A stretch of DNA of 64,000 nucleotides from a virus (Duplodnaviria > Heunggongvirae > Uroviricota > Caudoviricetes). Both the position numbers and the translations under genes were made by a program. This document shows, piece by piece, positions 16,171 through 36,952 of this stretch (the stretch's first letter is position 1; each line of letters begins with the position of its first letter). The DNA lies in the IMG/VR virus record IMGVR_UViG_3300029874_000006, positions 10,779-74,778 of that record. One strand, written 5' to 3'. Below the pieces are notes generated by a model, which saw only the letters and a program-made list of their open reading frames with translations, was not told the DNA's origin and made no database searches.

Positions 16171-16485
16171 TTAATTATTTTGTAATTGTCTTATTCTCTC
16201 TTGACATATATGAATAATCTTTTCATAGTCTTCTATTCTAGCTTCACTCTCAGTCTTTCCTTGTAATACTTTAGTTCTATATATACGTTTAACTATATCA
16301 GCATCCCAAGGATTTAATTTCCAATCTTGCCATACAGACCAAGGCTGAATTATAGACTTAGAATAGTTACTTTCTCCAATATTTTTATCTCTTACATTAG
16401 AATCATCTGGAAGTATTCCAATCTTTTGCAAATACTTAAAAAGATCAAGATTATTATTTATATATTCAGGAGTTATTAATTGCAT
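16171..16485 (-). CDS. Hypothetical protein (104 aa)
   Basis: First ORF of the minus-strand block; adjacent to the next gene; TAA stop. Confidence 0.4.
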   Translation of the reverse strand: MQLITPEYINNNLDLFKYLQKIGILPDDSNVRDKNIGESNYSKSIIQPWSVWQDWKLNPWDADIVKRIYRTKVLQGKTESEARIEDYEKIIHICQERIRQLQNN

Positions 16486-17054
16486 TATTTGATATGTGCT
16501 TTATAATGAATTTTATCTAATAATTCTGCCAGATTTACAGGTGTGAAATTATTATTATCTACACCCACATCATACTGATTATCGAAATAATTCCATGGTT
16601 TATCTGGTGTACTATGCACATGACCATGTAATTGAATTATAGGACGATTAGTAGCTGGATCTGGTAGAGAACCAAAGGGAAAGTGGTTAAGAATTATAGT
16701 TTTCTTTTCCACCCTAATTACTTCTTCCCAAGATACTGTTTCGCATCTAAAAGGAGTCTCAAAACTTTTCATAATATTCAAATTATCATGATTTCCCATA
16801 ATAAAGCTTATATGTCCAGTTAGACGTCTTATAAAATCAGGGATGAGTGATTTATCACCTAAAGCGAAATCTCCCAAGTGATAGACTATATCACCCTTAG
16901 AAACTACTTTATTCCAATTTTCTATTATAGTTTCATTCATTTCCTCAACAGAAGAGAATGGACGATTACAATACTTAATTATATTAGCATGATTAAAATG
17001 GGTATCTGAAGTTACCCAAATATGTTTTGCTTCTTCTTTTGTATATTTAACCAT
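16485..17054 (-). CDS. Calcineurin-like metallophosphoesterase
   Basis: Motifs SDTHFNH, GDF, GNHD, GHVH in canonical order. Confidence 0.7.
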   Translation of the reverse strand: MVKYTKEEAKHIWVTSDTHFNHANIIKYCNRPFSSVEEMNETIIENWNKVVSKGDIVYHLGDFALGDKSLIPDFIRRLTGHISFIMGNHDNLNIMKSFETPFRCETVSWEEVIRVEKKTIILNHFPFGSLPDPATNRPIIQLHGHVHSTPDKPWNYFDNQYDVGVDNNNFTPVNLAELLDKIHYKAHIK

Positions 17055-18315: not shown

Positions 18316-18689
18316 TTATTTTGATTCATATTCAGTTACGGTTACTTCCTTTGGAAATACTTCTGTTAAATCTGCATTTGCATCTACTTGGTCTTCAAAA
18401 TCCCAATTCCAAGTATAATACCAATCAAAAGAATAATATTTATCTTCAATCTTTATAATAGCAGTATAATTAATATAAGACTTTTCTAAGTCAATATAAT
18501 TAGTACGATATTGTGTATCTATTATTTCTATATGTGAATATAGGTTTTCTAAATAATCAAAAGCTTCCTCGGGGTATGAGATTCTCTAAATTTATCTAAT
18601 TCTTCTACCATATACTGAGGCATATAGTCTTCTATTTCATCAAATTCATCACTAATTATATAGTAATATTCGTCCAGTCTTAATTTCAT
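18316..18689 (-). pseudogene. ~123-aa gene interrupted by a 1-nt frameshift in a C4/G4 homopolymer (sequencing error or pseudogene)
   Basis: ATG at 18687-18689 overlaps the upstream gene's TGA (ATGA). Frame breaks at + strand GGGG 18571-18574. One extra C would give one continuous ORF: MKLRLDEYYY...HTPEEAFDYLENLY...TEYESK. Confidence 0.4.
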
Positions 18690-19201
18690 AATTCTAAAAA
18701 GTCTCTAACGTCAATATAATCTATACCAAAATTCTCAGCGCACTTCTTATCAGAATCTGAAAAATCCCCTGGTTTACCAGAAGCATCTCCTATCATAATA
18801 CATTCATCTTTAGACTCTACTTTGTATTGATAGTATAATTGTTCTAGCATTCCAGTATTAGGTTTTCGATAAGTATCATTCTTATCCATAGAACAACAAT
18901 ACAAGCTATCACTATATGAAAAATTATTAAGTTTATTAATAAAATAGTCATAACATATACCTTCTACAGCCCATATCTTATAATTAAAAATACGTTTATC
19001 TGTAAGAGTCTTTAAACCTCCTTGATTACTTACTATAAAAAACATATTAAGATTAGGCATCTTTTCTATTATTTTATCTAATACAGGAAGTTGTATTCTA
19101 AAATCAGTAATGTCTTCAGGAAATGTTTTACCTGAAATAGTCTTAATTAAAGTACTGTCCAAATCAATGAACAGTACTTTTTTAGTTTCAAAATCAATCA
19201 T
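18686..19201 (-). CDS. HAD-superfamily polynucleotide 3'-phosphatase (PNKP-like)
   Basis: DxDxT motif FIDLDSTLI; C-terminal IGDASGKPGDFSDSDKKCAENFGI resembles the PNKP phosphatase signature (GDAAGR...KDFS..D...N.G). Confidence 0.6.
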   Translation of the reverse strand: MIDFETKKVLFIDLDSTLIKTISGKTFPEDITDFRIQLPVLDKIIEKMPNLNMFFIVSNQGGLKTLTDKRIFNYKIWAVEGICYDYFINKLNNFSYSDSLYCCSMDKNDTYRKPNTGMLEQLYYQYKVESKDECIMIGDASGKPGDFSDSDKKCAENFGIDYIDVRDFLEL

Positions 19202-19488
19202 TCACAATATTGCTTAATTAATACTTCATCAGTTATAGCATCCTTTTGATAACCAGTATTAAGTTCTTTCATAGCCAAGCTATAACCCTCCCAATTATCA
19301 ACTCCTTCAGCCTCTAAAGCAGCTAATTTTTCGGAATCTTTTATTAATTGTAAAAGAGTATCTACATCTATAGATATGGCATTATTTATAACTTCAATAA
19401 CACTGTCACCCCAAGGAATAGACCTTTCTTCACCGCCTATAGGAATTTTACTTCCATCCCAACAAGGACAAGGCATATCGGAATCCAT
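19198..19488 (-). CDS. Hypothetical protein (96 aa)
   Basis: ORF overlapping neighbours by 4 nt. Confidence 0.4.
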   Translation of the reverse strand: MDSDMPCPCWDGSKIPIGGEERSIPWGDSVIEVINNAISIDVDTLLQLIKDSEKLAALEAEGVDNWEGYSLAMKELNTGYQKDAITDEVLIKQYCE

Positions 19489-19565
19489 TTCTAAGGCATC
19501 ATATACTGAACAGAAGTCATCGCTATCATCTACGAGATATTAAAAAGTCTCTTTAACTCTATACA

Positions 19566-19799
19566 TTATACCAAGATACTCTTAAGATTATCTACAAATT
19601 TATTTGCCTGAGCTTTGATATTCTCGATATCCTTAATTTCAGACTGAATCTTCTTTACTTCCTCTTCTTTTTCTGAAATCTTATCATTCATTTTGGAGAT
19701 TAAAGTAACTGCTTTATCGTGAGCAGTCTGAAAAGAAGACTGAATACTATTCAACTTAGAGCTAAAAGAAAGACCAAATAAATCCTGTAATGAGTTCAT
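19566..19799 (-). CDS. Hypothetical coiled-coil protein (77 aa)
   Basis: ORF; K/E-rich heptad-like sequence. Confidence 0.35.
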   Translation of the reverse strand: MNSLQDLFGLSFSSKLNSIQSSFQTAHDKAVTLISKMNDKISEKEEEVKKIQSEIKDIENIKAQANKFVDNLKSILV

Positions 19800-19859
19800 A
19801 TAACAATATACTTTAAAAAATAAATAATTGATCTTATTAATACTAATCTAAATATTTAA

Positions 19860-20432
19860 TTATTCATAAGTTACTTTTATTGTATCCAGTACATAATTAT
19901 GGTAATACTCCTCTAATTTAGGTATAATTTCATTTAAAAGAGTTGACTTATGATTAAATGCCCAGTTATAATTAGGAATTTCTTCTATAGGCAACCATTT
20001 AATTCCATCAACTTCATCTTTCTCCCCGCCTTCTTGAAGTTTACCAATAGGTTTTCTAAGACCTAGGATACATAAATGTCTTAAAGTAACATTACCTTTA
20101 TTACACTTTTTAGGGTCAGTCTCCACGTTAATTAATGCAAAAGCTTCTGAAGGAATACTAACCCCACATTCTTCAGCAACTTCTCTAGAACATGCTTCAG
20201 TGGCAGATTCGCCACCATCTAAATATCCACATGGCATATTCCATTTACCTTGGTCATCAGGTGTTCCTCTACCTCTTTTATTAATTAATACATACCATTT
20301 ACCATCTTTTTCTTTAGCTAACACGACACAACTAACTGCACAATATCTACCACTCCAAATGGTTTCTCCTTTATGAGGACCATCTGGAATAGTATAAGAA
20401 TAAGATTTTTCTATTTTACCTATTTGATTCAT
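19860..20432 (-). CDS. NUDIX hydrolase
   Basis: Nudix box GGESATEACSREVAEECGV (GX5EX7REUXEEXGU). Confidence 0.8.
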   Translation of the reverse strand: MNQIGKIEKSYSYTIPDGPHKGETIWSGRYCAVSCVVLAKEKDGKWYVLINKRGRGTPDDQGKWNMPCGYLDGGESATEACSREVAEECGVSIPSEAFALINVETDPKKCNKGNVTLRHLCILGLRKPIGKLQEGGEKDEVDGIKWLPIEEIPNYNWAFNHKSTLLNEIIPKLEEYYHNYVLDTIKVTYE

Positions 20433-20611
20433 TTACTTAAAAATAATGAAATTTTTTCGAGACATTTATCACATATATATCTACGCCTATTGAGTGTCCA
20501 CCTCTCATCTATAGAGTTTACTGCACTGCAGTAATCTAAGATTCCTACTTGCTTATCTAAATCTATAGTAGAGCCACAGAAATCACAAGTATAAAGAATT
20601 CTTTTACCCAT
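20429..20611 (-). CDS. Zinc-ribbon protein (60 aa)
   Basis: CDFCG ... CDKC pairs. Confidence 0.4.
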   Translation of the reverse strand: MGKRILYTCDFCGSTIDLDKQVGILDYCSAVNSIDERWTLNRRRYICDKCLEKISLFLSK

Positions 20612-20620
20612 TTAATTCCT

Positions 20621-20890
20621 TTAATAAGTTTCTATATAATAGTTCATGTTTCCCCAACCTCCACTACAGTTAGCATTTCGTATATGTTTACTTCGAATTT
20701 CTTCAGGCACATTCATAATAACATATTTACCTGAATAAAACCTTTCACCATTAATTACGAAATTGCCCCATTCATCGTTTTCTGTAGCGTGATCTATAAT
20801 ATCACCAACAGTATCTAAAGGGGAATGGATTATCTCATAATCAGAAGTACAATCCCCATATATATTTGATATTGATACTAGTTCTATCAT
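20621..20890 (-). CDS. Hypothetical protein (89 aa)
   Basis: ORF in operon. Confidence 0.4.
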   Translation of the reverse strand: MIELVSISNIYGDCTSDYEIIHSPLDTVGDIIDHATENDEWGNFVINGERFYSGKYVIMNVPEEIRSKHIRNANCSGGWGNMNYYIETY

Positions 20891-21396
20891 TTATAATATT
20901 TATATAAAGAAGTTACATTAGGGTCTTTACCACCATCATAAATACACACAGTCTGAATGATTTTACAACCTTGACGAATTTCTTTGAGGGCTTCCTCTAT
21001 TTTATTTCTAGTAGTGCCTGAATAAAAAGAATCATCAAATAAAATAAAATCATCAACGTCTATTTGATTAACTAATATTTGTGCTTTAGTATCTTCTTGT
21101 CGCAATCCCCCATTAACTAGTATTACCTGTTCAAAAGTCTTACGTAATTCATAAGGCATATAATTAAATACAGCTCTTCCGAAGGCACCTGTGAGAATTA
21201 GACCATTCCAACCAAATGTAGGAATGCCTCTATTTACCCACAGATGCTCATCATAACACCATTGAACCAACCTATCCCAGGTAGCATCAATAATACTCTT
21301 GTGTCCACGAATCATATCATCCAAGTGATTAAAGAAATCTTCATCACTAGAATGATTTTTAAGAATCTCTTCTACTTTTTTATCTAAAAAGTTCAT
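20887..21396 (-). CDS. Type-I phosphoribosyltransferase-domain protein (APRT-like)
   Basis: PRPP-binding signature VDDFILFDDSFYSGTT. Confidence 0.55.
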   Translation of the reverse strand: MNFLDKKVEEILKNHSSDEDFFNHLDDMIRGHKSIIDATWDRLVQWCYDEHLWVNRGIPTFGWNGLILTGAFGRAVFNYMPYELRKTFEQVILVNGGLRQEDTKAQILVNQIDVDDFILFDDSFYSGTTRNKIEEALKEIRQGCKIIQTVCIYDGGKDPNVTSLYKYYK

Positions 21397-21644
21397 TTTC
21401 TTTTATATTTAATTAGTTTTATAAGAGGTTTATTAAACTTAGAAAGAAATCTATCATTTATATAACTTAAAAATTTACCTAATTCATACACAGCTACAAC
21501 AGAGTTTAATGCTGGACATAAAACCAAAAGTAATATACCATCTGATTCGTCAGGATAAGTTTCATCATACTCTGAATCGTATCTAATATATAAAATAGCT
21601 CCTATAGCTGAAATTATATAAATAGCTAACCTAATTGTTACCAT
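21393..21644 (-). CDS. Small membrane protein, tandem paralog 1 (83 aa)
   Basis: IYIISAIGAILYIRYD... closely similar to the neighbouring ORF; hydrophobic helices. Confidence 0.45.
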   Translation of the reverse strand: MVTIRLAIYIISAIGAILYIRYDSEYDETYPDESDGILLLVLCPALNSVVAVYELGKFLSYINDRFLSKFNKPLIKLIKYKRK

Positions 21645-21871
21645 TTTTTATGAGTTTTATAAGTAATCAAATTATACAATTTTTTATTAAGATATGATAA
21701 ACTAATGGGCAAGAAGTCCATTATTGCTATTAAGCATATACCACTATTTACTATGGGACAGAATACTAAAAATATAGTCCAACTATCCTCATCAAATATG
21801 GCTTGATCATATCTAATACTTAATATGGCTCCTATAATAGATATTATGTATATTATAATTAAGATAACCAT
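21638..21871 (-). CDS. Small membrane protein, tandem paralog 2 (77 aa)
   Basis: IYIISIIGAILSIRYD...; paralog of 21393..21644. Confidence 0.45.
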   Translation of the reverse strand: MVILIIIYIISIIGAILSIRYDQAIFDEDSWTIFLVFCPIVNSGICLIAIMDFLPISLSYLNKKLYNLITYKTHKKW

Positions 21872-22692
21872 TCCGCTTTAGTTAACTTAAAAAATTCTTT
21901 GTGCATTGGATTAGCTATTTCCTGAGCCATTGGGTGTGCATCTGGAGCATCTCTTCTCTTAAAGAAATTTTCCCAAGCATCTTTAAATCCACAAGAGATA
22001 AGTTCAGACTTAATGCCTAGAGGAAGTACAGAACGAGCTTGTTGAGGTGTCCAACCATTCTTTAACATTCTAAAATAGCCCCACTCAGCGTGTTGTAAAA
22101 AATCAATGTAGTTACTACCTCTAATATCCCAACAAGGTTGGATAAAGGTTAATTCATTACCAAACTTATCCTTGGAATAATTACAATAACGGGTACTTTC
22201 AGCCAAATGGGACAATCCTACATGAGTTCTAAACTCATCCATAACTCCACGATCGAGAATCATATGAGCTGTATATCTTTTATAATGATACTCTGTAGGC
22301 TCACAAAGATATTGTAAATCATCCTCCCAATGATGCTCTTTAATCACTCTGTAATTAGTAGTCACATAAATAGTATTCCTAAGTTCTCCATTTATTCTAG
22401 TACTACCATTCCCAAAACTAAATTTACTCCAAGGATTATAAGCATATTTGTCAAGCCATTCCATATTATCCTCTTTTTGAGAAGTTCTAGATAAATACAC
22501 AGTGCCAAACTCAAGAGGTCTATCATGCCCTCTAGACTCTAGCATATTTACAAACTTCTCATAAGAGGTATCTGTAATCTTATTTTCACTTTTATAACTG
22601 ACTCGTGCACATCTTTCAATATGCTTTTTGATTCCCACTAAAGAGAAATCTGTTTGATTGATAAATTCAAATGACTGTTTAATTAACTTCAT
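21859..22692 (-). CDS. thyX: Flavin-dependent thymidylate synthase ThyX-like
   Basis: EFRTHVGLSHLAESTRY (RHR-x7-S-like) and QQARSVLPLG (ThyX AR..LP motif). Confidence 0.55.
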   Translation of the reverse strand: MKLIKQSFEFINQTDFSLVGIKKHIERCARVSYKSENKITDTSYEKFVNMLESRGHDRPLEFGTVYLSRTSQKEDNMEWLDKYAYNPWSKFSFGNGSTRINGELRNTIYVTTNYRVIKEHHWEDDLQYLCEPTEYHYKRYTAHMILDRGVMDEFRTHVGLSHLAESTRYCNYSKDKFGNELTFIQPCWDIRGSNYIDFLQHAEWGYFRMLKNGWTPQQARSVLPLGIKSELISCGFKDAWENFFKRRDAPDAHPMAQEIANPMHKEFFKLTKAEWLS

Positions 22693-22693
22693 A

Positions 22694-23110
22694 TTAAGAT
22701 TGATTATTTAATTTATACACTAATTCAGAAACAGAAGCCTTTAGACTTGTATTTTGCTTAGTCAAAGCCTTTACCTCTTTCTGTAATTCGAGTATTTTAA
22801 CTTCGGCTTTAGCTAAATCAAAGTCTTCTGGAACTTCAAGTTTAGACGCTTTAATCAAAGCACTCAAGTTAGTTATAGTTTGCTTCTGAGATTGTATTTT
22901 GCCCCGTAACTTAAATTCTGGATCAGTTTCATCTATCCAAGATTCTAGTTCACCAAGACGCTGCATAGCTTTACTATAATAAACTTTTCGATTAGCATCA
23001 TACTTCTTAAAGTTATCAACTTTATGTTCTAAACTTTGAATTGTACTTTTTAATTTACCAACGTATACTCTAACTGGATCTAGCAGTAGAGGATTCATTG
23101 ATTTTACCAT
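22694..23110 (-). CDS. Hypothetical coiled-coil protein (138 aa)
   Basis: ORF. Confidence 0.4.
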   Translation of the reverse strand: MVKSMNPLLLDPVRVYVGKLKSTIQSLEHKVDNFKKYDANRKVYYSKAMQRLGELESWIDETDPEFKLRGKIQSQKQTITNLSALIKASKLEVPEDFDLAKAEVKILELQKEVKALTKQNTSLKASVSELVYKLNNQS

Positions 23111-23484
23111 AACCCTATTGTCTTTCCTACTTCATTATCTATTAAACAATACTGAGAACCATCTGACAATGTTTGAATAAACTTCTTACAATGTTCAGCA
23201 ATCTCAGCTTCTTTTTTAACACCAACAATTTGTCCTGTTCTATAAGGGTCTGTTGTAGTAGATTTAGAGGCATCTATACCTACAAAAAATACAGCTTTAT
23301 CTTTATAAGTGGCACACTCTTTACAAGCATGGTCAGCATATCCAATAGCCTTATTATGTAACTTCTCTACTTCTTTAGCATTTTCCTCAGTAAGCAAAGA
23401 GTTCATAATAATTCCATTGTCTGCTTCCTTACCACAAATCGGACACAAATATTTAACTATTGAAACTCCTAATTTATCAGGCAT
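23104..23484 (-). CDS. Hypothetical Cys-rich protein (126 aa)
   Basis: CPICG ... CKEC motifs. Confidence 0.4.
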   Translation of the reverse strand: MPDKLGVSIVKYLCPICGKEADNGIIMNSLLTEENAKEVEKLHNKAIGYADHACKECATYKDKAVFFVGIDASKSTTTDPYRTGQIVGVKKEAEIAEHCKKFIQTLSDGSQYCLIDNEVGKTIGLW

Positions 23485-23791
23485 TTCCTATAATTTCATA
23501 ATTCATAAAATTTTGATCTTTATATTTAATTAAATTATCTAATTGCCAACAAGTACAAGGTTCTATTTCAGGATACATATAGCTAGGAATTATTGCTAAT
23601 TCTCTAGCATTTACCCAACAATATCTTCTAGAACATCCCCAATACTTTGTTGGATTATCTTCTTTAAGCTCTAATTCTGGTGTATCATAAAATATGTGTA
23701 ATTTACCTTTATGCTTTTGACCATAGTCATCATTGGGGTAATCATACGTTATATAATCAGAATCTCGAGCTATCCATAATTTTTTACTCAT
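23477..23791 (-). CDS. Hypothetical protein (104 aa)
   Basis: ORF. Confidence 0.4.
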   Translation of the reverse strand: MSKKLWIARDSDYITYDYPNDDYGQKHKGKLHIFYDTPELELKEDNPTKYWGCSRRYCWVNARELAIIPSYMYPEIEPCTCWQLDNLIKYKDQNFMNYEIIGNA

Positions 23792-24392
23792 TTGAATAAT
23801 ATAGAATTGTTGGATTGTCCTTATGTATATCTATATTATCTAATTTAGCTATAGCTAATTCTTGTTTAAATTGCTCTAAATCAAATCCTAGAGTAATTAC
23901 ATGAATACCATTTACTGTAGGAACATAATATAATATTTTATTTACATTAGGTCTACATTTTCTAACTAAATCTAAATACTTATTTATAAAACTCCAATCC
24001 TTAGTATCAAAATCTAATATCCATTTAGATTTATACTTATTACACCGTTTTCTGCCAAGAGCCCTAGATACACATTTAAATAATTTATGAGTTCCCAGTT
24101 CTATAGCCTCTAGAGCTTCCCTGATTATTTCATATTGTACTTCTTTACAATTTCTAGGGTTTATCCAAAAATAAGCTCTAGCATTAAAGGCTTTGCACAA
24201 AGTAGTAATTTCTTCTTTCTTAGATAAGAATGTTTCTTTATCAAAGAAATGATAGTCTTTAATTACGTAACCACTACTACCTACATTATTTTTTTCTTTA
24301 TTTCTTTGCATTACTTGTACAAAGAAGAAATCTCCCTGGTCTGAGAGATTGTCAAACCAGGGAGCCACTGCATTAAAATTATCTATTGTCAT
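23784..24392 (-). CDS. Hypothetical protein adjacent to PNK kinase (202 aa)
   Basis: ORF abutting the kinase gene by 1 nt; possible HxT-type motif (NGIHVITLG); function unknown. Confidence 0.45.
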   Translation of the reverse strand: MTIDNFNAVAPWFDNLSDQGDFFFVQVMQRNKEKNNVGSSGYVIKDYHFFDKETFLSKKEEITTLCKAFNARAYFWINPRNCKEVQYEIIREALEAIELGTHKLFKCVSRALGRKRCNKYKSKWILDFDTKDWSFINKYLDLVRKCRPNVNKILYYVPTVNGIHVITLGFDLEQFKQELAIAKLDNIDIHKDNPTILYYSNE

Positions 24393-24827
24393 TTAATTAC
24401 CATTCAAAGGATATTTATCCTTATAATTATTATAAAAACTTCTAATAACTCTTTCTGTAACTTGTAAATCTCTGTTTTTATCACGCTCAATACATACAGA
24501 TAAAGGAGTATCAAAGAAATCCTTAAATTCTATAGCATGATTTCCATGAGCTATAACTAGAGCACGATAGTTATCTAACACTTTTTTATTTAAATTAGTG
24601 TTATCAATAACTATGTCATAACCTTTAAGTAAGGCTTCAATTAGAGCTTCTTCTTGTATGTGTTGTACAAGAGGTTCTCTCTTAGGAACCCAATACTTAC
24701 CTAACATAAGACGAATATCATCTTGATTAATTCTAACTCTATGTTCAGGGTCTTCAAGAACCCATTGCTTAGCCCATGTAGACTTCCCACTTGCTGGAAG
24801 ACCTCTTGTTATAATTAATTTACTCAT
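24393..24827 (-). CDS. Polynucleotide 5'-kinase (T4 Pnk kinase-domain-like P-loop kinase)
   Basis: Walker A ITRGLPASGKSTWA, close to T4 Pnk GCPGSGKSTWA; size of a standalone kinase domain. Confidence 0.6.
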   Translation of the reverse strand: MSKLIITRGLPASGKSTWAKQWVLEDPEHRVRINQDDIRLMLGKYWVPKREPLVQHIQEEALIEALLKGYDIVIDNTNLNKKVLDNYRALVIAHGNHAIEFKDFFDTPLSVCIERDKNRDLQVTERVIRSFYNNYKDKYPLNGN

Positions 24828-25011
24828 CTTCTTCTACACTAATGCTTTCTGGTTCACCTTCTAATTGTACATCATCAAAGAATTCATCTGTACTAATTAC
24901 TTCTCCAACTTTAGCCAATTCAATAGCCTCATCTTCTGACTCGGCTTCTACTTCATATGTAAGGTAGCTTTTACCTTTACACTTATATACCATATTTACT
25001 AAATACCTCAT
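24820..25011 (-). CDS. Small acidic protein (63 aa)
   Basis: ORF; D/E-rich. Confidence 0.3.
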   Translation of the reverse strand: MRYLVNMVYKCKGKSYLTYEVEAESEDEAIELAKVGEVISTDEFFDDVQLEGEPESISVEEDE

Positions 25012-25141
25012 ATTATACTGGCAAAGATTAAAAATAATATCATTAATACAACTATAAACATACTTACAATTATACCTTTCTCATAAAAATACGCATCTTT
25101 CCAATTTTTATTCCATCCAATATTATTAGCTAATTTAATCA

Positions 25142-25375
25142 TTAAACATTCTTTAGAATTTCAGTTATAAGTTTCTTTGTATCTTCTACTGCTTGTGCAA
25201 TAGTTTCTTCATCTAAAGTAATGTCTAATCCAAAATCTTCAATTAGTCTATCTATTATACAGTCCCTAAATAATTTAGGGGTTCGTGTATCTTCTTCTAG
25301 ATAATCTGTAAATGCTAATTCTAAACTTCTTTTATAATAAGTTTCTTCAATTTCAACCGTTCCTTTTAATTCCAT
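25142..25375 (-). CDS. Hypothetical protein (77 aa)
   Basis: ORF. Confidence 0.35.
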   Translation of the reverse strand: MELKGTVEIEETYYKRSLELAFTDYLEEDTRTPKLFRDCIIDRLIEDFGLDITLDEETIAQAVEDTKKLITEILKNV

Positions 25376-25388
25376 AATTATTTATTTA

Positions 25389-25715
25389 TTAGTGAACCCA
25401 ATGGTCATTTATATCTATATCTGCTCCTAAAAATACATTAGGACAGAATGGTTTACCTCCGGCTATCATACAATCAATCAACACTTTACCCACTTGTTCT
25501 TTAATTGCTGCTGGACACTCCAAGTTGAATTCATCATGAGCTGGTACACACATCTTTACCTTATCTATTAGCTTATGATCCACAATCCAATTAAATAGTT
25601 TAATAGAAGATAGTTTAAAGCACATTGCTCCTCTATTTTGTATCAATGTTTGGACTATTTCATTATCCCATAGGGATATTGGGCGCTTATAGGATATTAT
25701 TGCTTCAATACTCAA
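25389..25715 (-). CDS. DNA polymerase I (family A) C-terminal fragment, palm motif C to C-terminus
   Basis: NRGAMCFKLSS (QGSAAD-like), CVPAHDEFNLE (motif C, VHDE), C-terminal ...INDHWVH (Pol I-type end). No ATG: the ORF opens after TAA and the earliest start-like codon is TTG. Confidence 0.65.
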   Translation of the reverse strand: MSIEAIISYKRPISLWDNEIVQTLIQNRGAMCFKLSSIKLFNWIVDHKLIDKVKMCVPAHDEFNLECPAAIKEQVGKVLIDCMIAGGKPFCPNVFLGADIDINDHWVH

Positions 25716-25830
25716 TCCTTAGTCTCTGAACCTTCTTACTACTTTTACTTGATTCATAAGCTTGGCTGCAGATTATTCTAATATTAGACCTTCCTGCAAT
25801 TCACCCAATTTACAGTAGATAATTACTTAT

Positions 25831-27780
25831 CTACGCCGCATACATTTTACGGTAATTAATAGATTGTTTCTCAGAAGCTGCTTTACGCTGCATATAGTGT
25901 CTTACTTCTTGTACAATCTCATCCTGTGGATTGCGTTTTCTTGCATTCTGATAATATTCCCAAAATCCGGGTTCCTGCATCTTGTTATGAGTCTCTTTTA
26001 ACTCCTCGGCATCATAAATATGTGCTCTATGTCCAGTAAGGGGATTAAGTAATATATAACCATCTCTCATAACAGCTGCTCTGCAATAATCTTGATATCT
26101 TTTTATTCCTGGAAAACCTTCCATAAAATTATCATAAATTTCTTTTGCTTCTTCTACAGGAATACCATCATTTTTGGAGATAGTATTATAATCTCCTCCG
26201 TAGTTTATCGCGAATTCAATAGATTTAGCTTTTTGTCTCCAATTATGATAGAGCTTCTTTATATCCTCAATCTTAGTGTCTCTTGGAATTATATTAGGAT
26301 AACTCATATAGGCTACCAAAGAATGGACATCACCACAACCATGTTCAAATAGGTCTATCATCTTCTCATCTTTAGAAACAGATGCAATAATACGAGATTC
26401 CTGACTTTGATAATCAGCAGATAACCAAGCATTACCTTCTTCAGATGTAAAACATGCTCTAGTTTCTGGATCATTCGGTAAGTTTTGAATGTTCAGTTTC
26501 CAAATACCGCCACCAGAGCTAACTCTTGCAGTATCTGTACCTATAGAATGAAAATCTGCATGTATTCTACCTGTTTTAGGATTAATTGCATTTAGCCAGT
26601 TTTGTCCATAGGTAGATACGACTTTGGCAGCTTCTTGATATTCCAAAAATATAGGAATAATTGGAAAGTCATTCTTTTGAGGTTTTAAAACATTTGCTTC
26701 AATAGACTTCTTTTTCTGTTTAGTCTTTTTGTCAAATGTCTCCACATTAATTCCAAGTAACTCAAATAGAGGTATTACTTGTTTTTGACTACTCCAATTT
26801 ATCACACATTTAGGTTCAGTATCAAATCCTGTAAATAAGTCACCTTGAGTATCAATTCGTGTAAACTGATTCTTAATTACTTTCTTATAAGCATCAACCT
26901 TACCATCAGGGGTTTGTAAGTCTTCCTGAGGGAACCTTTTATATCCATCTTTAATTAGTCTCTTTACCTCAGCAGGATAATCTGCAGAATACTTTGGATA
27001 TTTAAGTTCAGGATATTGAATATCATAGCCATTATGAGGATTTTCTTTATCCCAAGCTACTACCCAAGCATTTAATTCTGAAATAGCCTTATCAAGTTTA
27101 GCTTGATCTTTAGTCATTTTAGCTTTCCACTTCGTAATATCAAGATGAACTCCACAATATTTAAAGTAAGCAAGGGATTTAACAAATTCACATTCCAGCT
27201 CTACTGCGAGTTTCATGCCTTGTTTTTCTATTTCAATATCTTGTTTTTCTTTTATATCCTCTATATACGTAACATCTCCTGCAGCATAAATAACGACCTC
27301 AGTAGTTAAACCATCATTAACAATTTTACCTCGAACAGTTTTATCAATGTTAATATTTAAGTAATTCCATGCAGCTGCTTTCAAGCTCTTTTCACGCATT
27401 TGAGCTGGATACCCTAGATATAAGAGCTGTTCTACTATCATACCATCCCAAATATGCTTAGGATAGATACCCTGAACATATAAAAAGGTTAAATCAAACA
27501 TTAAATTCCATCCCAGAAACAATCTGTCTGATTCTAGGTAGTTTTTAACTATTTGCTTTTCTCTTAGAGTTAGAGTAGTCCAATCAATAACTACTTGATT
27601 ATCTTTATTACCTAACTGTATAGTCAATAAAGCTTTGGTATGACAGTCGAGACCCTTAGTTTCTGAATCTAACTGACATAGTTTGAGCGGCAACAGAACA
27701 GACATTGCCTGCTCCATTGTCGCTTCTATATATATATCCGTTTGAAATAAACTTTTATTATGACTAACTAAATAAATCAT
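25831..27780 (-). CDS. DNA polymerase I (family A) N-terminal part: 3'-5' exonuclease plus palm motifs A and B
   Basis: Exo I CQLDSETKGLD; Exo II YAAGDVTY; motif A LSADYQSQESRIIA; motif B RQKAKSIEFAINYGG. Lacks motif C. Terminates at TAG 25831-25833. Confidence 0.85.
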   Translation of the reverse strand: MIYLVSHNKSLFQTDIYIEATMEQAMSVLLPLKLCQLDSETKGLDCHTKALLTIQLGNKDNQVVIDWTTLTLREKQIVKNYLESDRLFLGWNLMFDLTFLYVQGIYPKHIWDGMIVEQLLYLGYPAQMREKSLKAAAWNYLNINIDKTVRGKIVNDGLTTEVVIYAAGDVTYIEDIKEKQDIEIEKQGMKLAVELECEFVKSLAYFKYCGVHLDITKWKAKMTKDQAKLDKAISELNAWVVAWDKENPHNGYDIQYPELKYPKYSADYPAEVKRLIKDGYKRFPQEDLQTPDGKVDAYKKVIKNQFTRIDTQGDLFTGFDTEPKCVINWSSQKQVIPLFELLGINVETFDKKTKQKKKSIEANVLKPQKNDFPIIPIFLEYQEAAKVVSTYGQNWLNAINPKTGRIHADFHSIGTDTARVSSGGGIWKLNIQNLPNDPETRACFTSEEGNAWLSADYQSQESRIIASVSKDEKMIDLFEHGCGDVHSLVAYMSYPNIIPRDTKIEDIKKLYHNWRQKAKSIEFAINYGGDYNTISKNDGIPVEEAKEIYDNFMEGFPGIKRYQDYCRAAVMRDGYILLNPLTGHRAHIYDAEELKETHNKMQEPGFWEYYQNARKRNPQDEIVQEVRHYMQRKAASEKQSINYRKMYAA

Positions 27781-28040
27781 TGATAATTACAAATAGTTAA
27801 ATTATTTAGAACTATATCTTCATTATCAATATTTAATTTGTCTTTTATAGCTTCTTCTACAGCTTCTTTTAATTCTTCTTCATTAATAACTAAATGCCTA
27901 CCTTCTTTATACTGAGGAATGGTAATATCTACAAAAGTACCTAATTCAACATTTACTTCTACAGTAATATTTCTATTATTAGGTTCATTCCAAGGTGCAC
28001 TTGGGTCATTATAAGCTCCTGCTGGATAATTTTCTGTCAT
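27777..28040 (-). CDS. Hypothetical protein (87 aa)
   Basis: ORF, 4-nt overlap. Confidence 0.35.
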   Translation of the reverse strand: MTENYPAGAYNDPSAPWNEPNNRNITVEVNVELGTFVDITIPQYKEGRHLVINEEELKEAVEEAIKDKLNIDNEDIVLNNLTICNYQ

Positions 28041-28360
28041 GCTAAATAGTCATTTAACCACTCTATTCCATATTCATCTATTACCTTTTCATCTATCTTT
28101 ATAGCTTCAAGTTCTATATCCTCAAGCTGCTGTTCATACCAATCTTCAAATTGATCCTCATCATCCTCGTCTATATCTGGACTATCTAAATAGCTAAATG
28201 AGTTAACACACTCGTCTCTTAATTCATTTGCATAACTCAGTTCTAATGTAGGATCTTCTTCACTTTCAATTACTTCATTTATTGAAGCATCACAAGCAAC
28301 TGGATACTTAGCAATAACTAGCCACCAATTCCCATTAAGAAATTCTTCCTTAGATATCAT
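28037..28360 (-). CDS. Hypothetical acidic protein (107 aa)
   Basis: ORF. Confidence 0.35.
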   Translation of the reverse strand: MISKEEFLNGNWWLVIAKYPVACDASINEVIESEEDPTLELSYANELRDECVNSFSYLDSPDIDEDDEDQFEDWYEQQLEDIELEAIKIDEKVIDEYGIEWLNDYLA

Positions 28361-29205
28361 TATATTAATTTAGATAACTGTAAATTGCATCTTTTTCTTA
28401 TTTTATCTAAAGCTTTTTCTTTTATTTGTCTAACTCTTTCAACACCAATGCCAAACATATCTCCTACTTCTTGCTTGGACATAGGATTCATTCCTATGCC
28501 AAATAACATAATAATAATATCATGTTCTCTGACAGGAAGTATATCTAGACATTTGCATAGTTCCTTATTAATAAAGCTTTTATTAACTTGTTCGTCAAGA
28601 GAAGGCTCTCCGTCCGGTATCACATCACATACTTGACTATTTTCCTCATCCCCACCAATAAAGTCATCGACACTAACTAATCTGTTAGAAAATTGTGCCA
28701 AATAGTCTATTTGCTTTTCAGGGATATTAGTTAAAGTATGTAATTCATTTGTAGTTGGATTTCTACCATTCTTTTTAATAAACTCATTAGTAGCTCTTAA
28801 TATTTGAATTACTTTTAAGTGTTGAGTTACTGGCAATCTAATCTCACGACCATACCAATATATAGTAGTATAAATACATTGTTTTATCCACCAAGCAGAA
28901 TAATTAAGAAATTTAACACCCCTAGTTGGGTCAAATTTATTTACAGATTTACATAAACCTTCCAATCCTGAGGATATTAAATCCATAAGGGGAATACCTC
29001 TATTTTGAAACTGCTTAGCTATAGTTACTACAAATCTTAAATTAGAAGTAATTACTTTTTCTCTAGCCTTTTCATCCCCATTTTGAGCTTCAACAATTAG
29101 CTTGTTTATTTCTTCATTATCTAATATTTTATATTTAGATATATCTCGAAAATAACTCTGAAGTAGAGAGTCAGACTTGTCAGAAAAAATAATTCTTTTA
29201 TTCAT
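28360..29205 (-). CDS. Sigma-70 family RNA polymerase sigma factor
   Basis: Region 2: NLRFVVTIAKQFQNRGIPLMDLISSGLEGLCKSVNKFDPTRGVKFLNYSAWWIKQCI. Region 4 HTH: SKQEVGDMFGIGVERVRQIKEKALDKIRKR. Confidence 0.8.
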   Translation of the reverse strand: MNKRIIFSDKSDSLLQSYFRDISKYKILDNEEINKLIVEAQNGDEKAREKVITSNLRFVVTIAKQFQNRGIPLMDLISSGLEGLCKSVNKFDPTRGVKFLNYSAWWIKQCIYTTIYWYGREIRLPVTQHLKVIQILRATNEFIKKNGRNPTTNELHTLTNIPEKQIDYLAQFSNRLVSVDDFIGGDEENSQVCDVIPDGEPSLDEQVNKSFINKELCKCLDILPVREHDIIIMLFGIGMNPMSKQEVGDMFGIGVERVRQIKEKALDKIRKRCNLQLSKLI

Positions 29206-29461
29206 TAATTGTGGACTTAGCTAGTGCTTTAGCTTCATCTAATTGTTTTTCTTCTTGGGTTGGTTGATTAAGACCTATACGTATACTAAGAATAGTGAGA
29301 TAAGCTTCCATTGCCTTGAGTTGAGCTATCAATAAATCTTTATTAAGATTATCTATAGAAGTCTTATCTATTTTATTAATTAAGAAATCTCTAAGCTTTG
29401 TAGTTTTAGTTTCCAATTCTTTGTACTCTGTAAGTAGTCTGTCAAACACGCTCTTTTCCAT
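29198..29461 (-). CDS. Hypothetical coiled-coil protein (87 aa)
   Basis: ORF. Confidence 0.35.
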   Translation of the reverse strand: MEKSVFDRLLTEYKELETKTTKLRDFLINKIDKTSIDNLNKDLLIAQLKAMEAYLTILSIRIGLNQPTQEEKQLDEAKALAKSTINE

Positions 29462-29529
29462 GTTAATTTTTATTTTAGTTAAAGTAGAATCTAGAACAGT
29501 AAATATCTAATATATTATCTTCTTCTTTA

Positions 29530-30219
29530 TTAATCGATTTCCAAATACTTAGGTTCATAACTAATATGATAATCATTATCAAGAATAGAAACATTATATA
29601 TTTCTGTATTATCCAGTTTCAAATATTTATCTTTACAAGTATGTAGGTGCCCACAAAATACATATCTAGGTTTAATTCTCTGAATAGCTTCAGCTAAACT
29701 TTGACCTCCAGCATGGATAGATTCTTGACTCCATCGACTCGGAGGTAATAAATCTAAATCTTCCAAAGCGGGAGTATCGTGGGTTAACCATATATCTATA
29801 TCATTTGGAACTTGATTATATAGACCTTCTAAAAATTCCTCACTGTGCATAAATGCCCAATTCCCAAACATGTGACATTGTGGAGACCCATATACCTTAT
29901 AATTTTTACCATCAGGAGCTCTATAATTAGTATAATCATTAAGTAAATAAGTAAACTTAAAATCAGAAAGATACTCTAAGGCTTTCATTACTGGATATTC
30001 TGAAGCACATATAAAATCATGATTACCTGCTACCATATATACTTCTTCACAAGGCAATTCCTTAATCCAAGGTAAAAAATCTTGAAAGAACCATACAATA
30101 GATTCTACTCTATTTTTCTGTATATTCAAGGGTACAACATCTCCTGCAATTAAACATAAATCACACTTCTGTATATGGATAAGATTACCATGTAAATCAG
30201 ACATTGCGCATATTTTCAT
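29530..30219 (-). CDS. Calcineurin-like metallophosphoesterase
   Basis: SDLHGN, GDVV, GNHD, GHLH. Confidence 0.7.
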   Translation of the reverse strand: MKICAMSDLHGNLIHIQKCDLCLIAGDVVPLNIQKNRVESIVWFFQDFLPWIKELPCEEVYMVAGNHDFICASEYPVMKALEYLSDFKFTYLLNDYTNYRAPDGKNYKVYGSPQCHMFGNWAFMHSEEFLEGLYNQVPNDIDIWLTHDTPALEDLDLLPPSRWSQESIHAGGQSLAEAIQRIKPRYVFCGHLHTCKDKYLKLDNTEIYNVSILDNDYHISYEPKYLEID

Positions 30220-30724
30220 ATTCTATTAAATATTCAAAGAATCCATCATAAGATAAGTTATCTTTTATTGTAATAACTTCCTTTCTATTATCTACAGATT
30301 TACACCATTGGTGCCTATTAACTACCTGATAAAGAGTTTTATTATTGTATACCATATCTAACATAGCTTCCCAAGTAGCTATATTTCTAGTACTAGAATC
30401 TTCATCGTCTTTAGTTATATAGTTAAAAATAAATATCAATTGCCACTTTTTAAACAAAGTAATAGAAATATAAGGGTCCCATTCATGTTCGATTCTCTCA
30501 TATTTCCATTTCCAACCAACGGCGCTAAATCTAATATCTAATATTCTATTATAATATCTATCTGTTATAGGTAATCCAAAGAACCATATTTTCTTGCCAC
30601 AATAAATATGACAGTTAGGTCTATGGAACCAGTCTTGGCACTTCCACCAAACATAGAATGGATTATTATATTCATTCCAATGCTTGGTAAAAGTGCATAT
30701 TTTATTAATTAAATTAACCTTCAT
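30197..30724 (-). CDS. Hypothetical protein (175 aa)
   Basis: ORF. Confidence 0.4.
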   Translation of the reverse strand: MKVNLINKICTFTKHWNEYNNPFYVWWKCQDWFHRPNCHIYCGKKIWFFGLPITDRYYNRILDIRFSAVGWKWKYERIEHEWDPYISITLFKKWQLIFIFNYITKDDEDSSTRNIATWEAMLDMVYNNKTLYQVVNRHQWCKSVDNRKEVITIKDNLSYDGFFEYLIEYENMRNV

Positions 30725-32084
30725 CCTCTAGATCCATTTCTGGATGTGTCTGAGACATATCTAAGAATTTGAAACATTTTAATTTCCAAGCGTGACCAAT
30801 CATATCCTCCTTTTTAATAACTATACCTTCATGAGGTACCTTATTAGCACAAGAAGGTGATTTACATTCCATATAGAAACGCTTATCATTAGATAGTTTA
30901 TCCAAAAACTTTTTTGTCCAGTCTTCATCCCTACTATCTAATTCAGGATATAAATCCTTAGCATATCCATAATAATATTCAGTTACAGGAGTTAGTCCTA
31001 CTGATTTACAATATTGCTGTACTTCTCTTGCACTAAACTCGTGCACCTCACCATCTACATTAGTTAGTGTGATTCTATAAGGTCTTACCTTAAAATGTTT
31101 TTCTGGCTTATATATCAAATTGTCTATAATAGCGTTAGGCTGTTCACAACCATAATCATATCCCTTTTGAATATATGTGCCAGTTGGATTGTATCCCACA
31201 ATCTCTGCATAAATAGTCATACCCTTTTGAATATATGGACGTAGATAATCATCAGCATACTTCCAAGTATCGCAACCATAAAATCCTGGTGTCACATTAG
31301 GATTATAATACTGGTTCTTAATTACATTCTTTGAAGCATATAGATGGTCATAAATATCGAAGTTATTACCTGTGAGCCATTTAGCTAATTTCTCTTTCCA
31401 AGTAAGTTCTTTATGACACATTACATATGCTGAGATATGAGAAGTACCATGTATTTTCTCAGTAATACTAATTAAATCTTCAGGTTGAATTACATTAGGA
31501 CATTTCTTGATAATAACTGTTTCGTAATGATATCTAAATTGAGAAGGGATGACTTTATCGAGTTCCTTCTTAACTTTACGTGTCTTTTTTGAGCCTCCTC
31601 CAGGAGTTCCCTGTGATCCTTTAACGATGAATTTCTTATTAACCCAAAATGTCTTGCCTTCATGTTCTACTGTATCAAATTCAGTTCCGTCAATTAATTC
31701 AATATCTCTATTAGTTATGGATATAAGCCAGTTAGTAAATTCTACAGCAGGTACAATAAATCCTTCTGATAATTCACCTCTTAATTTAACGGCTTTAACC
31801 TTACCATTATCTTCAAATAGACCAGTTTTATGTGGATCATTGTTTTTCTCTGACTTTCTAAATAAGTTATTATAGGATAAAAAATCAGGATTAATACAAC
31901 AAGCTGTTGGGAAATATATATATAACCCTGGTTCAGCATCTATTGAAGTAATGATATTAAATCCATCAATAGTACAACACTTGAGTTTAGTTACTTCTGG
32001 ATTTGAATGCTTTCTAAAAACTTTAATATTAACTACTTTAGCTAAGTAATTAATGTTACAATTTTTACTCTTGATTAGTTTCAT
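30714..32084 (-). CDS. ATP-dependent RNA ligase (Rnl2-like nucleotidyltransferase) with N-terminal extension
   Basis: Motif I ITEKIHGTS (T4 Rnl2 EKIHGTN); motif III-like IYAEIVGY; motif IV HEGIVIKKED; motif V KLKCFK. Confidence 0.55.
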   Translation of the reverse strand: MKLIKSKNCNINYLAKVVNIKVFRKHSNPEVTKLKCCTIDGFNIITSIDAEPGLYIYFPTACCINPDFLSYNNLFRKSEKNNDPHKTGLFEDNGKVKAVKLRGELSEGFIVPAVEFTNWLISITNRDIELIDGTEFDTVEHEGKTFWVNKKFIVKGSQGTPGGGSKKTRKVKKELDKVIPSQFRYHYETVIIKKCPNVIQPEDLISITEKIHGTSHISAYVMCHKELTWKEKLAKWLTGNNFDIYDHLYASKNVIKNQYYNPNVTPGFYGCDTWKYADDYLRPYIQKGMTIYAEIVGYNPTGTYIQKGYDYGCEQPNAIIDNLIYKPEKHFKVRPYRITLTNVDGEVHEFSAREVQQYCKSVGLTPVTEYYYGYAKDLYPELDSRDEDWTKKFLDKLSNDKRFYMECKSPSCANKVPHEGIVIKKEDMIGHAWKLKCFKFLDMSQTHPEMDLEDEG

Positions 32085-36714: not shown

Positions 36715-36952
36715 TTAAATAATCATTACATTCTTCCCAGAGTTCATCTATTCCGTCTCCCCATTCTACATCTCCATGTTCTACTCCTAATGTATCTAAA
36801 TATCTCAGAACAAGAGTATTTATATGCTCATAAATGAACATTCGTAAATCTTCATCAGACATTGAAGCACATTTAGAATCTAAAGACCTTACAAAGTCAA
36901 TAAGTTCTCTAGCTTCTATTTCTTCATAAACATTAAGATTTATATATGCCAT
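36707..36952 (-). CDS. Hypothetical protein (81 aa)
   Basis: ORF. Confidence 0.35.
   Translation of the reverse strand: MAYINLNVYEEIEARELIDFVRSLDSKCASMSDEDLRMFIYEHINTLVLRYLDTLGVEHGDVEWGDGIDELWEECNDYLND

Follow-up and report, generated by a model that had tools for sequence, protein, structure and literature searches.

We analyzed a stretch of 64,000 nt (in the following called the window) from a phage genome of the class Caudoviricetes (IMG/VR record IMGVR_UViG_3300029874_000006, positions 10,779 to 74,778), which carries genes for a polynucleotide kinase, a polynucleotide 3'-phosphatase, an RNA ligase and an unannotated protein of 202 amino acids (aa) within a 45-kb block for replication and nucleotide metabolism. 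These genes probably encode a system that first heals and then seals broken ends, i.e., RNA repair of the kind described for T4 (Pnkp plus RNA ligase), here assembled from different parts. This reading is carried by the family assignments of the proteins, by their conserved catalytic residues and by the synteny of their genes with those for Pnkp, Thg1-like proteins and RNA ligases in sister and distant phages. Profile searches covering PF13671, PNK3P and the RNA ligase families gave E-values far beyond chance and confirmed that the kinase, the phosphatase and the RNA ligase named in a preliminary description of this DNA are present. The features are listed in Table 1.

Table 1. Position and basis of assignment of the genes and elements discussed (window coordinates; ORF, open reading frame; L017, a clade B phage locus).
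Feature	Position	Strand	Basis
Polynucleotide 5'-kinase, stand-alone, 144 aa, T4 Pnk kinase-domain type	24393..24827	-	PF13671, phrog_505
HAD-IIIA polynucleotide 3'-phosphatase, stand-alone, eukaryotic PNKP (PNK3P) type, 171 aa	18686..19201	-	PF08645
ATP-dependent RNA ligase, 456 aa, Rnl5 (DraRnl/NgrRnl) architecture	30714..32084	-	phrog_968, PF09414
Protein of 202 aa from a large phage family without annotation; a palm fold like that of primase-polymerases (AEP) is predicted	23784..24392	-	Structure model and synteny
RNA hairpin, 13 bp, GC-rich, with U-rich tract, within codons 10-20 of the ORF for the 202-aa protein	24332..24364	-	Terminator-like match
Two small ORFs, 96 aa (19198-19488) and 77 aa (19566-19799), travelling with the phosphatase gene as a three-gene block	19198..19799	-	Synteny with L017
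175-aa protein without family match, Trp-rich	30197..30724	-	Overlaps the RNA ligase gene by 11 nt and the metallophosphoesterase gene by 23 nt
Calcineurin-type metallophosphoesterase, 229 aa	29530..30219	-	PF00149 (E 1e-12)
ATP-dependent DNA ligase, 407 aa	33878..35101	-	PF01068 (E 4e-19); phrog_114 (E 1e-43)

The kinase contains the sequence GLPASGKSTWA and matched PF13671 (E 3e-18) and phrog_505 'polynucleotide kinase' (E 6e-31), the latter match covering the kinase half of the PHROG profile. Its closest solved structures were the kinase domain of T4 Pnk (1ly1, E 1e-9) and Pnkp1 of Capnocytophaga gingivalis (4xrp, E 4e-9). The residues essential in T4 Pnk are K15, D35, R38, and R126. In the alignment with T4, in which the P-loop (G9-S16) is in register, the corresponding positions of the window kinase are K15, D36 (T4 D35), R39 (R38), R115 (R122), and R119 (R126), and all five are at least 96% conserved among 93 unique phage homologues. 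The P-loop, the general-base Asp and the acceptor- and donor-binding Arg residues of a T4-type polynucleotide kinase are thus all present, and the initial classification of the protein as T4 Pnk-like holds. A fused C-terminal HAD domain (PF25109) is absent, as the protein stops at residue 144.

The phosphatase covered the full PF08645 (PNK3P) profile with 82.9 bits (cut-off 22) and exceeded the cut-off of TIGR01662. Against the equivalog model TIGR01664 'DNA 3'-phosphatase' it reached 69.7 bits, which is under the cut-off of 107.65; the annotation provided by JGI is 'DNA 3'-phosphatase'. Judged by sequence, the assignment to the PNKP-type family holds, the putative substrate being either RNA or DNA. 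The closest solved relative was the phosphatase domain of mammalian PNKP (mouse PNKP 1yj5, E 2e-6), and the motifs DxDxT, SGKxFP, D(W/F)R, NQ, RKP, and GDAxG were in register with the mouse protein and at least 90% conserved among 68 unique homologues. The protein thus has HAD motifs I-IV as well as the SGKxFP/D(W/F)R substrate-channel signature of PNKP-type enzymes, in agreement with the PNKP signature noticed previously.

The RNA ligase matched phrog_968 'RNA ligase' (E 8e-33) and, with 27.0 bits and hence exactly at the cut-off, PF09414 (aa 206-439). It contains the sequences KIHGT, EGIVIK, and KLK; nucleotidyltransferase motifs I, III, IV, and V are present, and K210, H212, G213, E294, E419, G420, K434, and K436 are invariant among 36 homologues. 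An N-terminal OB-like domain is followed by a K-rich linker and the nucleotidyltransferase domain; a C-terminal domain is missing, as only 20 aa remain after motif V. Residues 26-119 matched the N-terminus (profile positions 12-100) of TIGR02306 (DRB0094, the DraRnl model). Sequence searches against solved structures gave no match, either with the single sequence or with a profile of 36 sequences. When an AlphaFold model of moderate quality (pLDDT 69) was submitted to Foldseek, 13 NgrRnl entries came first (E 4e-10 to 9e-9, about 445 columns), whereas the match to T4 Rnl2 was weaker (E 4.5e-5, 295 columns). Judged by these matches, the ligase has the Rnl5 (DraRnl/NgrRnl) architecture. For its relatives from other phages that are similar in length, PF21189 (PHA02142 N-domain) plus PF09414 are given as precomputed matches; PF21189 was not matched by the window ligase at E ≤ 0.01. 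Membership in the Rnl2 family was ruled out, because there is no room for a C-terminal domain after motif V and NgrRnl is the best fold match. Of the name 'Rnl2-like RNA ligase' used in the preliminary description, the ATP-dependent RNA ligase and the Rnl2-like motif I (KIHGT) therefore remain, but the architecture is that of Rnl5.

Enzymes of the Rnl5 family seal 3'-OH/5'-PO4 nicks in duplexes with RNA as the 3'-OH strand and are feeble on single-stranded RNA, whereas the loop-sealing families are Rnl1 and Rnl4 (PMC4408790). Only the 3'-OH strand must be RNA; joining of RNA-OH to pDNA is possible, and RNA patches laid in DNA by a repair polymerase were suggested as a context, the natural substrates of Rnl5 being unknown (PMC4408790). 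For a ligase of the Rnl5 type, a nick in a stem or hybrid would consequently suit the enzyme better than the open loop of an anticodon. The initial proposal that the T4 Pnk-Rnl tRNA-repair pathway is rebuilt in this phage is thus supported with respect to the enzyme set and the cassette synteny described below, but repair of anticodon loops in the manner of T4 Rnl1 is not the obvious reaction. The PrrC, RloC, retron or PARIS effectors named there would be no more than candidate opponents of the system.

The start codon of the 202-aa ORF directly follows the kinase stop codon (...AAT TAA ATG...), in agreement with the tight coupling noted before. This tight spacing says little, because nearly all genes of the minus-strand block abut or overlap their neighbours, and the link between the two genes therefore rests on synteny in other phages. 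The family had no match in Pfam or NCBIfam and none in the PDB by sequence, and the PHROG containing the protein is labelled 'unknown', without assigned function. An exhaustive search yielded 1415 clusters at 50% identity, nearly all of them stand-alone proteins of about 200 aa. R30, K32, R72, D127, D129, G162, and H164 are invariant and K191 is nearly so. The structure model of the protein (pLDDT 86.8, pTM 0.82) shows two beta-alpha-beta-beta-alpha-beta units. A DxD at a strand end (D127xD129), a Gly-x-His hairpin (G162xH164) and a later HK(D) strand would fit the order of AEP motifs I to III (DxD, His, acidic residue); D192 (or D188), the candidate for the third of these, is not constant within the family. 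The LigD polymerase domain was among the fold matches, and a search of the model against BFVD returned only uncharacterized phage proteins, with a 'DNA primase small subunit' at E 0.18. The modelled fold suggests that the family is probably an AEP-like or polymerase-like enzyme. Genes for a DnaG-type primase (phrog_12622, E 9e-45) and a DnaB-family helicase lie near each other at 51315-52319 (-) and 54395-55534 (-), and the 202-aa protein is unlikely to be the sole primase of the phage.

In sister phages the repair genes form compact cassettes. Locus L101 has the order DNA ligase, RNA ligase, two small ORFs, fused Pnkp, Thg1-like protein, 97-aa ORF, 202-aa homologue, two small ORFs, and PolA. 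Its RNA ligase is 63% identical to that of the window, its Thg1-like protein matches PF04446 (E 1e-31), and its Pnkp (304 aa) consists of an AAA_33 domain, 49% identical to the window kinase, and a PF25109 (HAD_PNKP) domain. A tblastn search of the 64-kb window with the latter domain gave no match, and contigs of the fused-Pnkp clade were absent from the best 80 of 87 viral hits to the PF08645 phosphatase. This rules out that T4 Pnkp was simply split: the window phosphatase belongs to PF08645 rather than PF25109, and the window holds no PF25109-like sequence. The simplest reading of these sequence comparisons would be loss of the T4-type phosphatase domain, with a non-orthologous HAD phosphatase taking its place. 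Thus, kinase and phosphatase are indeed encoded by separate genes, as originally stated, but the phosphatase is not the T4 domain. Since loci L192 and L149 represent intermediates in which the T4-type HAD protein has a gene of its own, beside or close to that of the kinase, the complementarity of the phosphatase types is a tendency and not a rule.

In clade B, locus L017 has the order kinase, 97-aa ORF, 202-aa homologue, 72-aa ORF, 121-aa ORF, and PF08645 phosphatase. The 121-aa and 72-aa proteins are homologues, in the same order, of the two small ORFs next to the window phosphatase gene, the 96-aa ORF overlapping the phosphatase start by 4 nt. The window has kept this three-gene block, and about 4.3 kb with genes for nucleotide metabolism are inserted between it and the 202-aa gene, comprising three small ORFs, ThyX, two small hydrophobic ORFs, a PRTase-like gene, two small ORFs, and a Nudix gene. 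The gene orders indicate that the dispersal of the repair genes in the window is secondary. The term 'dispersed toolkit' used in the preliminary description is therefore correct for the window itself, but the spread would not be ancestral, given the compact cassettes of the sister phages.

The position of the 202-aa gene was then counted in sets of 80 loci from the window's phage group; the loci are related to one another, so that the counts are not independent. Among kinase-anchored loci, the gene was found within 400 nt of the anchor in 25 of 80 and somewhere in the locus in 39 of 80. Of the 80 Thg1-anchored loci, 23 had it no more than 830 nt away from the Thg1-like gene, and 12 of 80 phosphatase-anchored loci had it within 760 nt of the PF08645 gene.

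The same association was seen at greater distance. Eight members of the 202-aa family with 27-37% identity were looked up in unrelated contigs, and seven of them had as a neighbour a gene for an RNA ligase, a Pnk kinase, a phosphatase of the HAD or metallo type, or Thg1. Two loci contained a CCA-adding-like nucleotidyltransferase, Rnl1, Metallophos, a kinase-only Pnk, and the 202-aa homologue, followed by PolB either directly or after two genes. A third had the order Metallophos, kinase, 135-aa ORF, Rnl5-type ligase, 202-aa homologue, PIF1, and Rnl1, and a fourth the order PolA, DUF723, 56-aa ORF, 202-aa homologue, Thg1, Rnl5-type ligase, 223-aa ORF, DUF723, and fused Pnkp. In the others, the homologue was located directly upstream of a fused Pnkp gene with an Rnl5-type ligase gene 3 kb off, after a HAD_SAK_2 phosphatase gene and a 99-aa ORF, or among NAD-salvage genes, with a cREC domain gene on one side and the gene for an Rnl5-type ligase on the other; only one homologue was without annotated neighbours. 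Seven of eight would far exceed what we expect for a random phage gene, this expectation being an estimate and not a computed background rate. The 202-aa family thus co-occurs with the kinase, every type of phosphatase, Thg1, the CCA-adding-like nucleotidyltransferase, and ligases of the Rnl1 and Rnl5 types, and therefore probably supplies a distinct step. The earlier suggestion that the ORF coupled to the kinase gene may belong to the module is borne out by this synteny.

Based on these data, we propose the following sequence of events. The 144-aa kinase would phosphorylate 5'-OH ends and the PNKP-type HAD protein would remove 3'-phosphates, possibly after the MPPED2-like metallophosphoesterase encoded next to the RNA ligase has opened 2',3'-cyclic phosphates. 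The 202-aa primase-polymerase-like protein, most likely a nucleotidyl transferase, might restore or extend the end before sealing. The Rnl5-type ligase would then join 3'-OH RNA to 5'-phosphate at base-paired breaks, which could lie in the stem of a tRNA, in some other structured RNA or in an RNA:DNA hybrid. That each protein has the activity named and that all act on a common substrate, RNA cut by a host defence nuclease, is what we infer from the families and their synteny. That sister phages have a Thg1-like partner suggests tRNA as a class of substrate (PMC2904730).

A more specific version, which we regard as possible but rather doubtful, is that the 202-aa family is an unrecognized AEP-fold component of phage RNA repair and that, in addition, the Pnkp phosphatase domain was replaced by the PNKP-type HAD protein. 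We propose for this case that the 202-aa protein is a small AEP-type nucleotidyl transferase which rebuilds or extends the 3' end before ligation, as a counterpart of the Thg1-like enzymes acting on 5' ends, or alternatively that it lays the ribonucleotide patch needed by Rnl5-type ligases.

Several observations speak against an RNA repair pathway. Within the window, 5-6 kb separate the three core genes from one another, and their phyletic patterns differ. Members of clade B have the 202-aa gene and the phosphatase gene, the kinase gene in some cases only, and no RNA ligase gene within 10 kb. In phages of about 100 kb the kinase gene is located directly downstream of PolA, with no ligase or phosphatase gene within 6 kb, and a further 46 phage loci have the PNK3P phosphatase gene but neither a kinase nor a ligase gene within 8 kb of it. 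Enzymes of the PF08645 family are best known for DNA 3'-phosphatase activity. With respect to tRNA as substrate, no tRNA genes were found in the 64-kb window, the L101 Thg1-like protein gave no tblastn match in it, and contigs of clade A were absent from the 80 best viral Thg1-like hits. Finally, the weakness of Rnl5 enzymes in sealing single strands and loops (PMC4408790) would make an anticodon-loop target doubtful.

Some of these points fit the main alternative, which we consider unlikely but more plausible than a chance assembly: repair of DNA or RNA:DNA-hybrid ends attached to replication. Kinase and phosphatase would clean 5'-OH/3'-P breaks in DNA in the manner of eukaryotic PNKP, the 202-aa protein would fill in a short ribonucleotide patch, the Rnl5-type ligase would seal the RNA-OH/pDNA junction, and PolA and the DNA ligase would finish the repair, in a scheme resembling LigD (Pol, phosphoesterase, and ligase). 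The typing of the phosphatase family as DNA 3'-phosphatase agrees with this, as do the RNA requirement of Rnl5 on the 3'-OH strand only, the suggested sealing of RNA patches in DNA (PMC4408790), and the LigD polymerase domain among the fold matches of the 202-aa protein. Moreover, the DNA ligase gene is syntenic throughout, and the kinase and 202-aa genes adjoin a DNA polymerase gene in very different phages (PolA in some, PolB in others), including the phages of about 100 kb in which the kinase gene follows PolA and neither ligase nor phosphatase is nearby. The proximity to polymerase genes may, however, reflect no more than a shared block of early/middle genes. In addition, the sister and distant homologues adjoin Thg1-like and CCA-adding-like nucleotidyltransferases, Rnl1-type ligases, and cREC, which are tRNA- or RNA-end enzymes, and the sister phages use T4-type Pnkp, a known RNA-repair enzyme.

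An even less probable alternative is that there is no pathway, i.e., that independent accessory enzymes share the 45-kb block by chance: the HAD protein could be a nucleotide phosphatase acting with the Nudix, PRTase-like and ThyX proteins whose genes it adjoins, the metallophosphoesterase, which is closest to the cyclic-nucleotide phosphodiesterase MPPED2 and persists in clade B without an RNA ligase, could degrade cyclic-nucleotide defence signals, and the 202-aa protein could be a second primase. The discordant phyletic patterns, including the 46 PF08645 loci, are in accordance with this view, but the phosphatase retains the PNKP-specific substrate-channel signature and is encoded 0.75 kb from the 202-aa gene in clade B, a DnaG-type primase is already encoded next to DnaB, and the genes for kinase, ligase, phosphoesterase, and 202-aa protein recur as strings in unrelated phages.

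Compared with T4 Pnkp plus Rnl1/Rnl2, the window system is likewise phage-encoded and has the equivalents of the essential kinase residues (K15, D35, R38, R126), a 3'-phosphatase of the HAD superfamily and, as in Rnl2, a ligase with a KxHG motif I. It differs in that the kinase of 144 aa is stand-alone, that the phosphatase is of the PF08645 and not the PF25109 type and is encoded 5 kb away, the genes being non-contiguous, and that the ligase has an N-terminal OB-like domain instead of the tRNA-specific C-domain of Rnl1 or the C-domain of Rnl2. With the Rnl5 ligases of Deinococcus (DraRnl) and Naegleria (NgrRnl), which combine PF21189 and PF09414, the window ligase has in common an N-terminal domain followed by the nucleotidyltransferase domain and nothing past motif V. 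It is, however, about 115 aa longer, contains a lysine-rich linker of low model confidence (aa 152-196) and has KIHG as motif I, as in Rnl2, in place of the KxDG of Rnl5. The phosphatase resembles mammalian PNKP and yeast Tpp1 (PF08645) in its full set of HAD motifs including SGKxFP and D(W/F)R and in being a capless HAD-IIIA protein, suited to polymer ends. It differs in being viral and stand-alone, without a fused kinase or FHA domain, and in scoring below the TIGR01664 cut-off.

In bacterial LigD, an AEP polymerase is joined by a phosphoesterase for end healing and by a ligase with a preference for a 3' ribonucleotide. In Clostridium thermocellum Pnkp (CthPnkp; kinase, metallophosphoesterase, and ligase), the calcineurin-type domain heals 2',3'-cyclic and 3'-phosphate ends (PMC2190708), which shows that a phosphoesterase of this type can perform end healing. 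In contrast to CthPnkp and LigD, the activities in the window would reside in separate small proteins, and homology was seen at the superfamily level only. In jumbo phages, ATP-dependent RNA ligases were described together with PNK kinases, with phosphatases that are either HAD proteins (fused or stand-alone) or calcineurin-like and, in sporadic cases, with Thg1 (Iyer et al. 2021, PMC7824862), and Thg1 genes were described to associate with PNK and RNA ligase genes (Anantharaman et al. 2010, PMC2904730). The theme and the enzyme families are common to these sets and the window, whereas term searches of the two articles returned no AEP-like component. The kit as such is therefore of an already known kind (PMC7824862), and the variant found here is marked by the Rnl5-type ligase, the kinase-only Pnk, the non-orthologous PNKP-type phosphatase, and the secondary dispersal. 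Neither the 202-aa family nor the 175-aa ORF linked to the ligase was found in Pfam or in named PHROGs.

The list of host defences that cut tRNA or other RNA is growing fast, and far less has been learned about how phages counter them. The lineage studied here shows how such a kit is rebuilt from interchangeable parts, with Pnkp fused or split, two unrelated HAD proteins plus a metallophosphoesterase, a ligase of the Rnl5 or Rnl1 type, and an optional Thg1-like protein. The 202-aa family, a regular neighbour of these kits, would be a concrete candidate to test for a step still missing from RNA repair, and the kits provide a possible physiological context for Rnl5 ligases.

The genes for the RNA ligase, the 175-aa protein and the 229-aa metallophosphoesterase have overlapping frames in the window, and this string recurs in clade D with two extra small ORFs. 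The 175-aa protein had no match in Pfam, PHROG or NCBIfam; the clade D phage L060 encodes a 197-aa homologue between ligase and phosphoesterase, and by its position the protein may be an additional member of the module. The closest solved relative of the metallophosphoesterase is MPPED2 (E 2.6e-7), a cyclic-nucleotide phosphodiesterase. The similarity suggests that it may be a 2',3'-cyclic phosphodiesterase or 3'-phosphatase partner of the ligase, and thus it may either heal 2',3'-cyclic RNA ends or degrade cyclic-nucleotide defence signals. In clades A and D its gene comes after the RNA ligase gene, and strings of Metallophos, kinase-only Pnk and RNA ligase recur in distant phages. The link to the ligase is not strict, because clade B keeps the phosphoesterase without an RNA ligase. 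Strict complementarity with fused Pnkp was not upheld either, as clade D carries both proteins and clade B has the phosphoesterase without the ligase. Altogether, the block encodes three calcineurin-type metallophosphoesterases (29530-30219, 16485-17054, and 36940-37641, all on the minus strand). The separate DNA ligase mentioned previously is an ordinary ATP-dependent enzyme whose gene lies just beyond the interval quoted then; it is found upstream of the RNA ligase gene in loci L039-L118 and is syntenic with it in all clades.

The source phage has a genome of about 180 kb and is very common in human-gut metagenomes. Identical 202-aa and kinase sequences are present on hundreds of contigs, many of 170-190 kb, and the kinase sequence alone on 537 contigs. 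A search of deposited phage genomes for a close relative gave a single weak match (MT835492, unannotated, 12% coverage). The G+C content is about 31% across the window, and from 16.4 kb onward all genes are on the minus strand. In addition to the repair genes, the 45-kb block contains genes for PolA, a sigma factor, ThyX, a Nudix hydrolase, an anaerobic ribonucleotide reductase, DnaB, the DnaG-type primase, exonucleases, and a Sak4-like annealing protein. The segment at 19860-21396 (-), located between ThyX and the phosphatase, encodes a Nudix hydrolase of 190 aa and a 169-aa protein, the latter with a phosphoribosyltransferase (PRTase)-like motif 'DDSFYSGTT' and without a Pfam match. In the distant phage L361, the 202-aa family is found among genes for a PRTase, a nicotinate phosphoribosyltransferase (NAPRTase) and a nucleoside deoxyribosyltransferase. 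Together with the Nudix and PRTase-like genes of the window, this neighbourhood hints at a link of NAD and nucleotide salvage to RNA repair.

A sigma-factor-like protein of 281 aa (28360-29205, -), named by inspection of its sequence, is encoded between RNA ligase and PolA and occupies the same position in all sister clades with 31-100% identity. In a promoter scan, sigma-70-like sites were rarer than in shuffled sequences, which is uninformative; the phage has its own sigma factor. The hairpin in the 202-aa ORF, directly behind the kinase gene, is kept in relatives by paired synonymous changes (CCC..CAG to CCT..CAA) and in a third variant; it may act in attenuation, in RNA processing or in the control of translation.

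The PolA gene (25389-27780, -) carries at 25633-25859 a group I intron that has a length of about 205 nt and contains no ORF (Rfam RF00028, 81.1 bits, E 5e-19). Because this intron interrupts the gene, PolA appears to be split into ORFs of 649 and 108 aa. In the near-identical relatives L125 and L127, PolA is intron-less and has 729 aa. Insertions of about 1.1-1.2 kb split the ORF of the DNA ligase (L039, L048, L050) or of PolA (L134, L047) in close relatives; these are probably larger introns or homing-endonuclease elements, unlike the small intron of the window. A comparison of loci L001-L037 with the window regions 18686-19201 and 24393-24827 revealed strong allelic mosaicism: although the genes for PolA, the sigma factor and the 202-aa protein were 97-100% identical to those of the window, phosphatase alleles with 67-75% or kinase alleles with 78-79% identity were found, which suggests frequent recombinational exchange of the kinase and phosphatase accessory genes.

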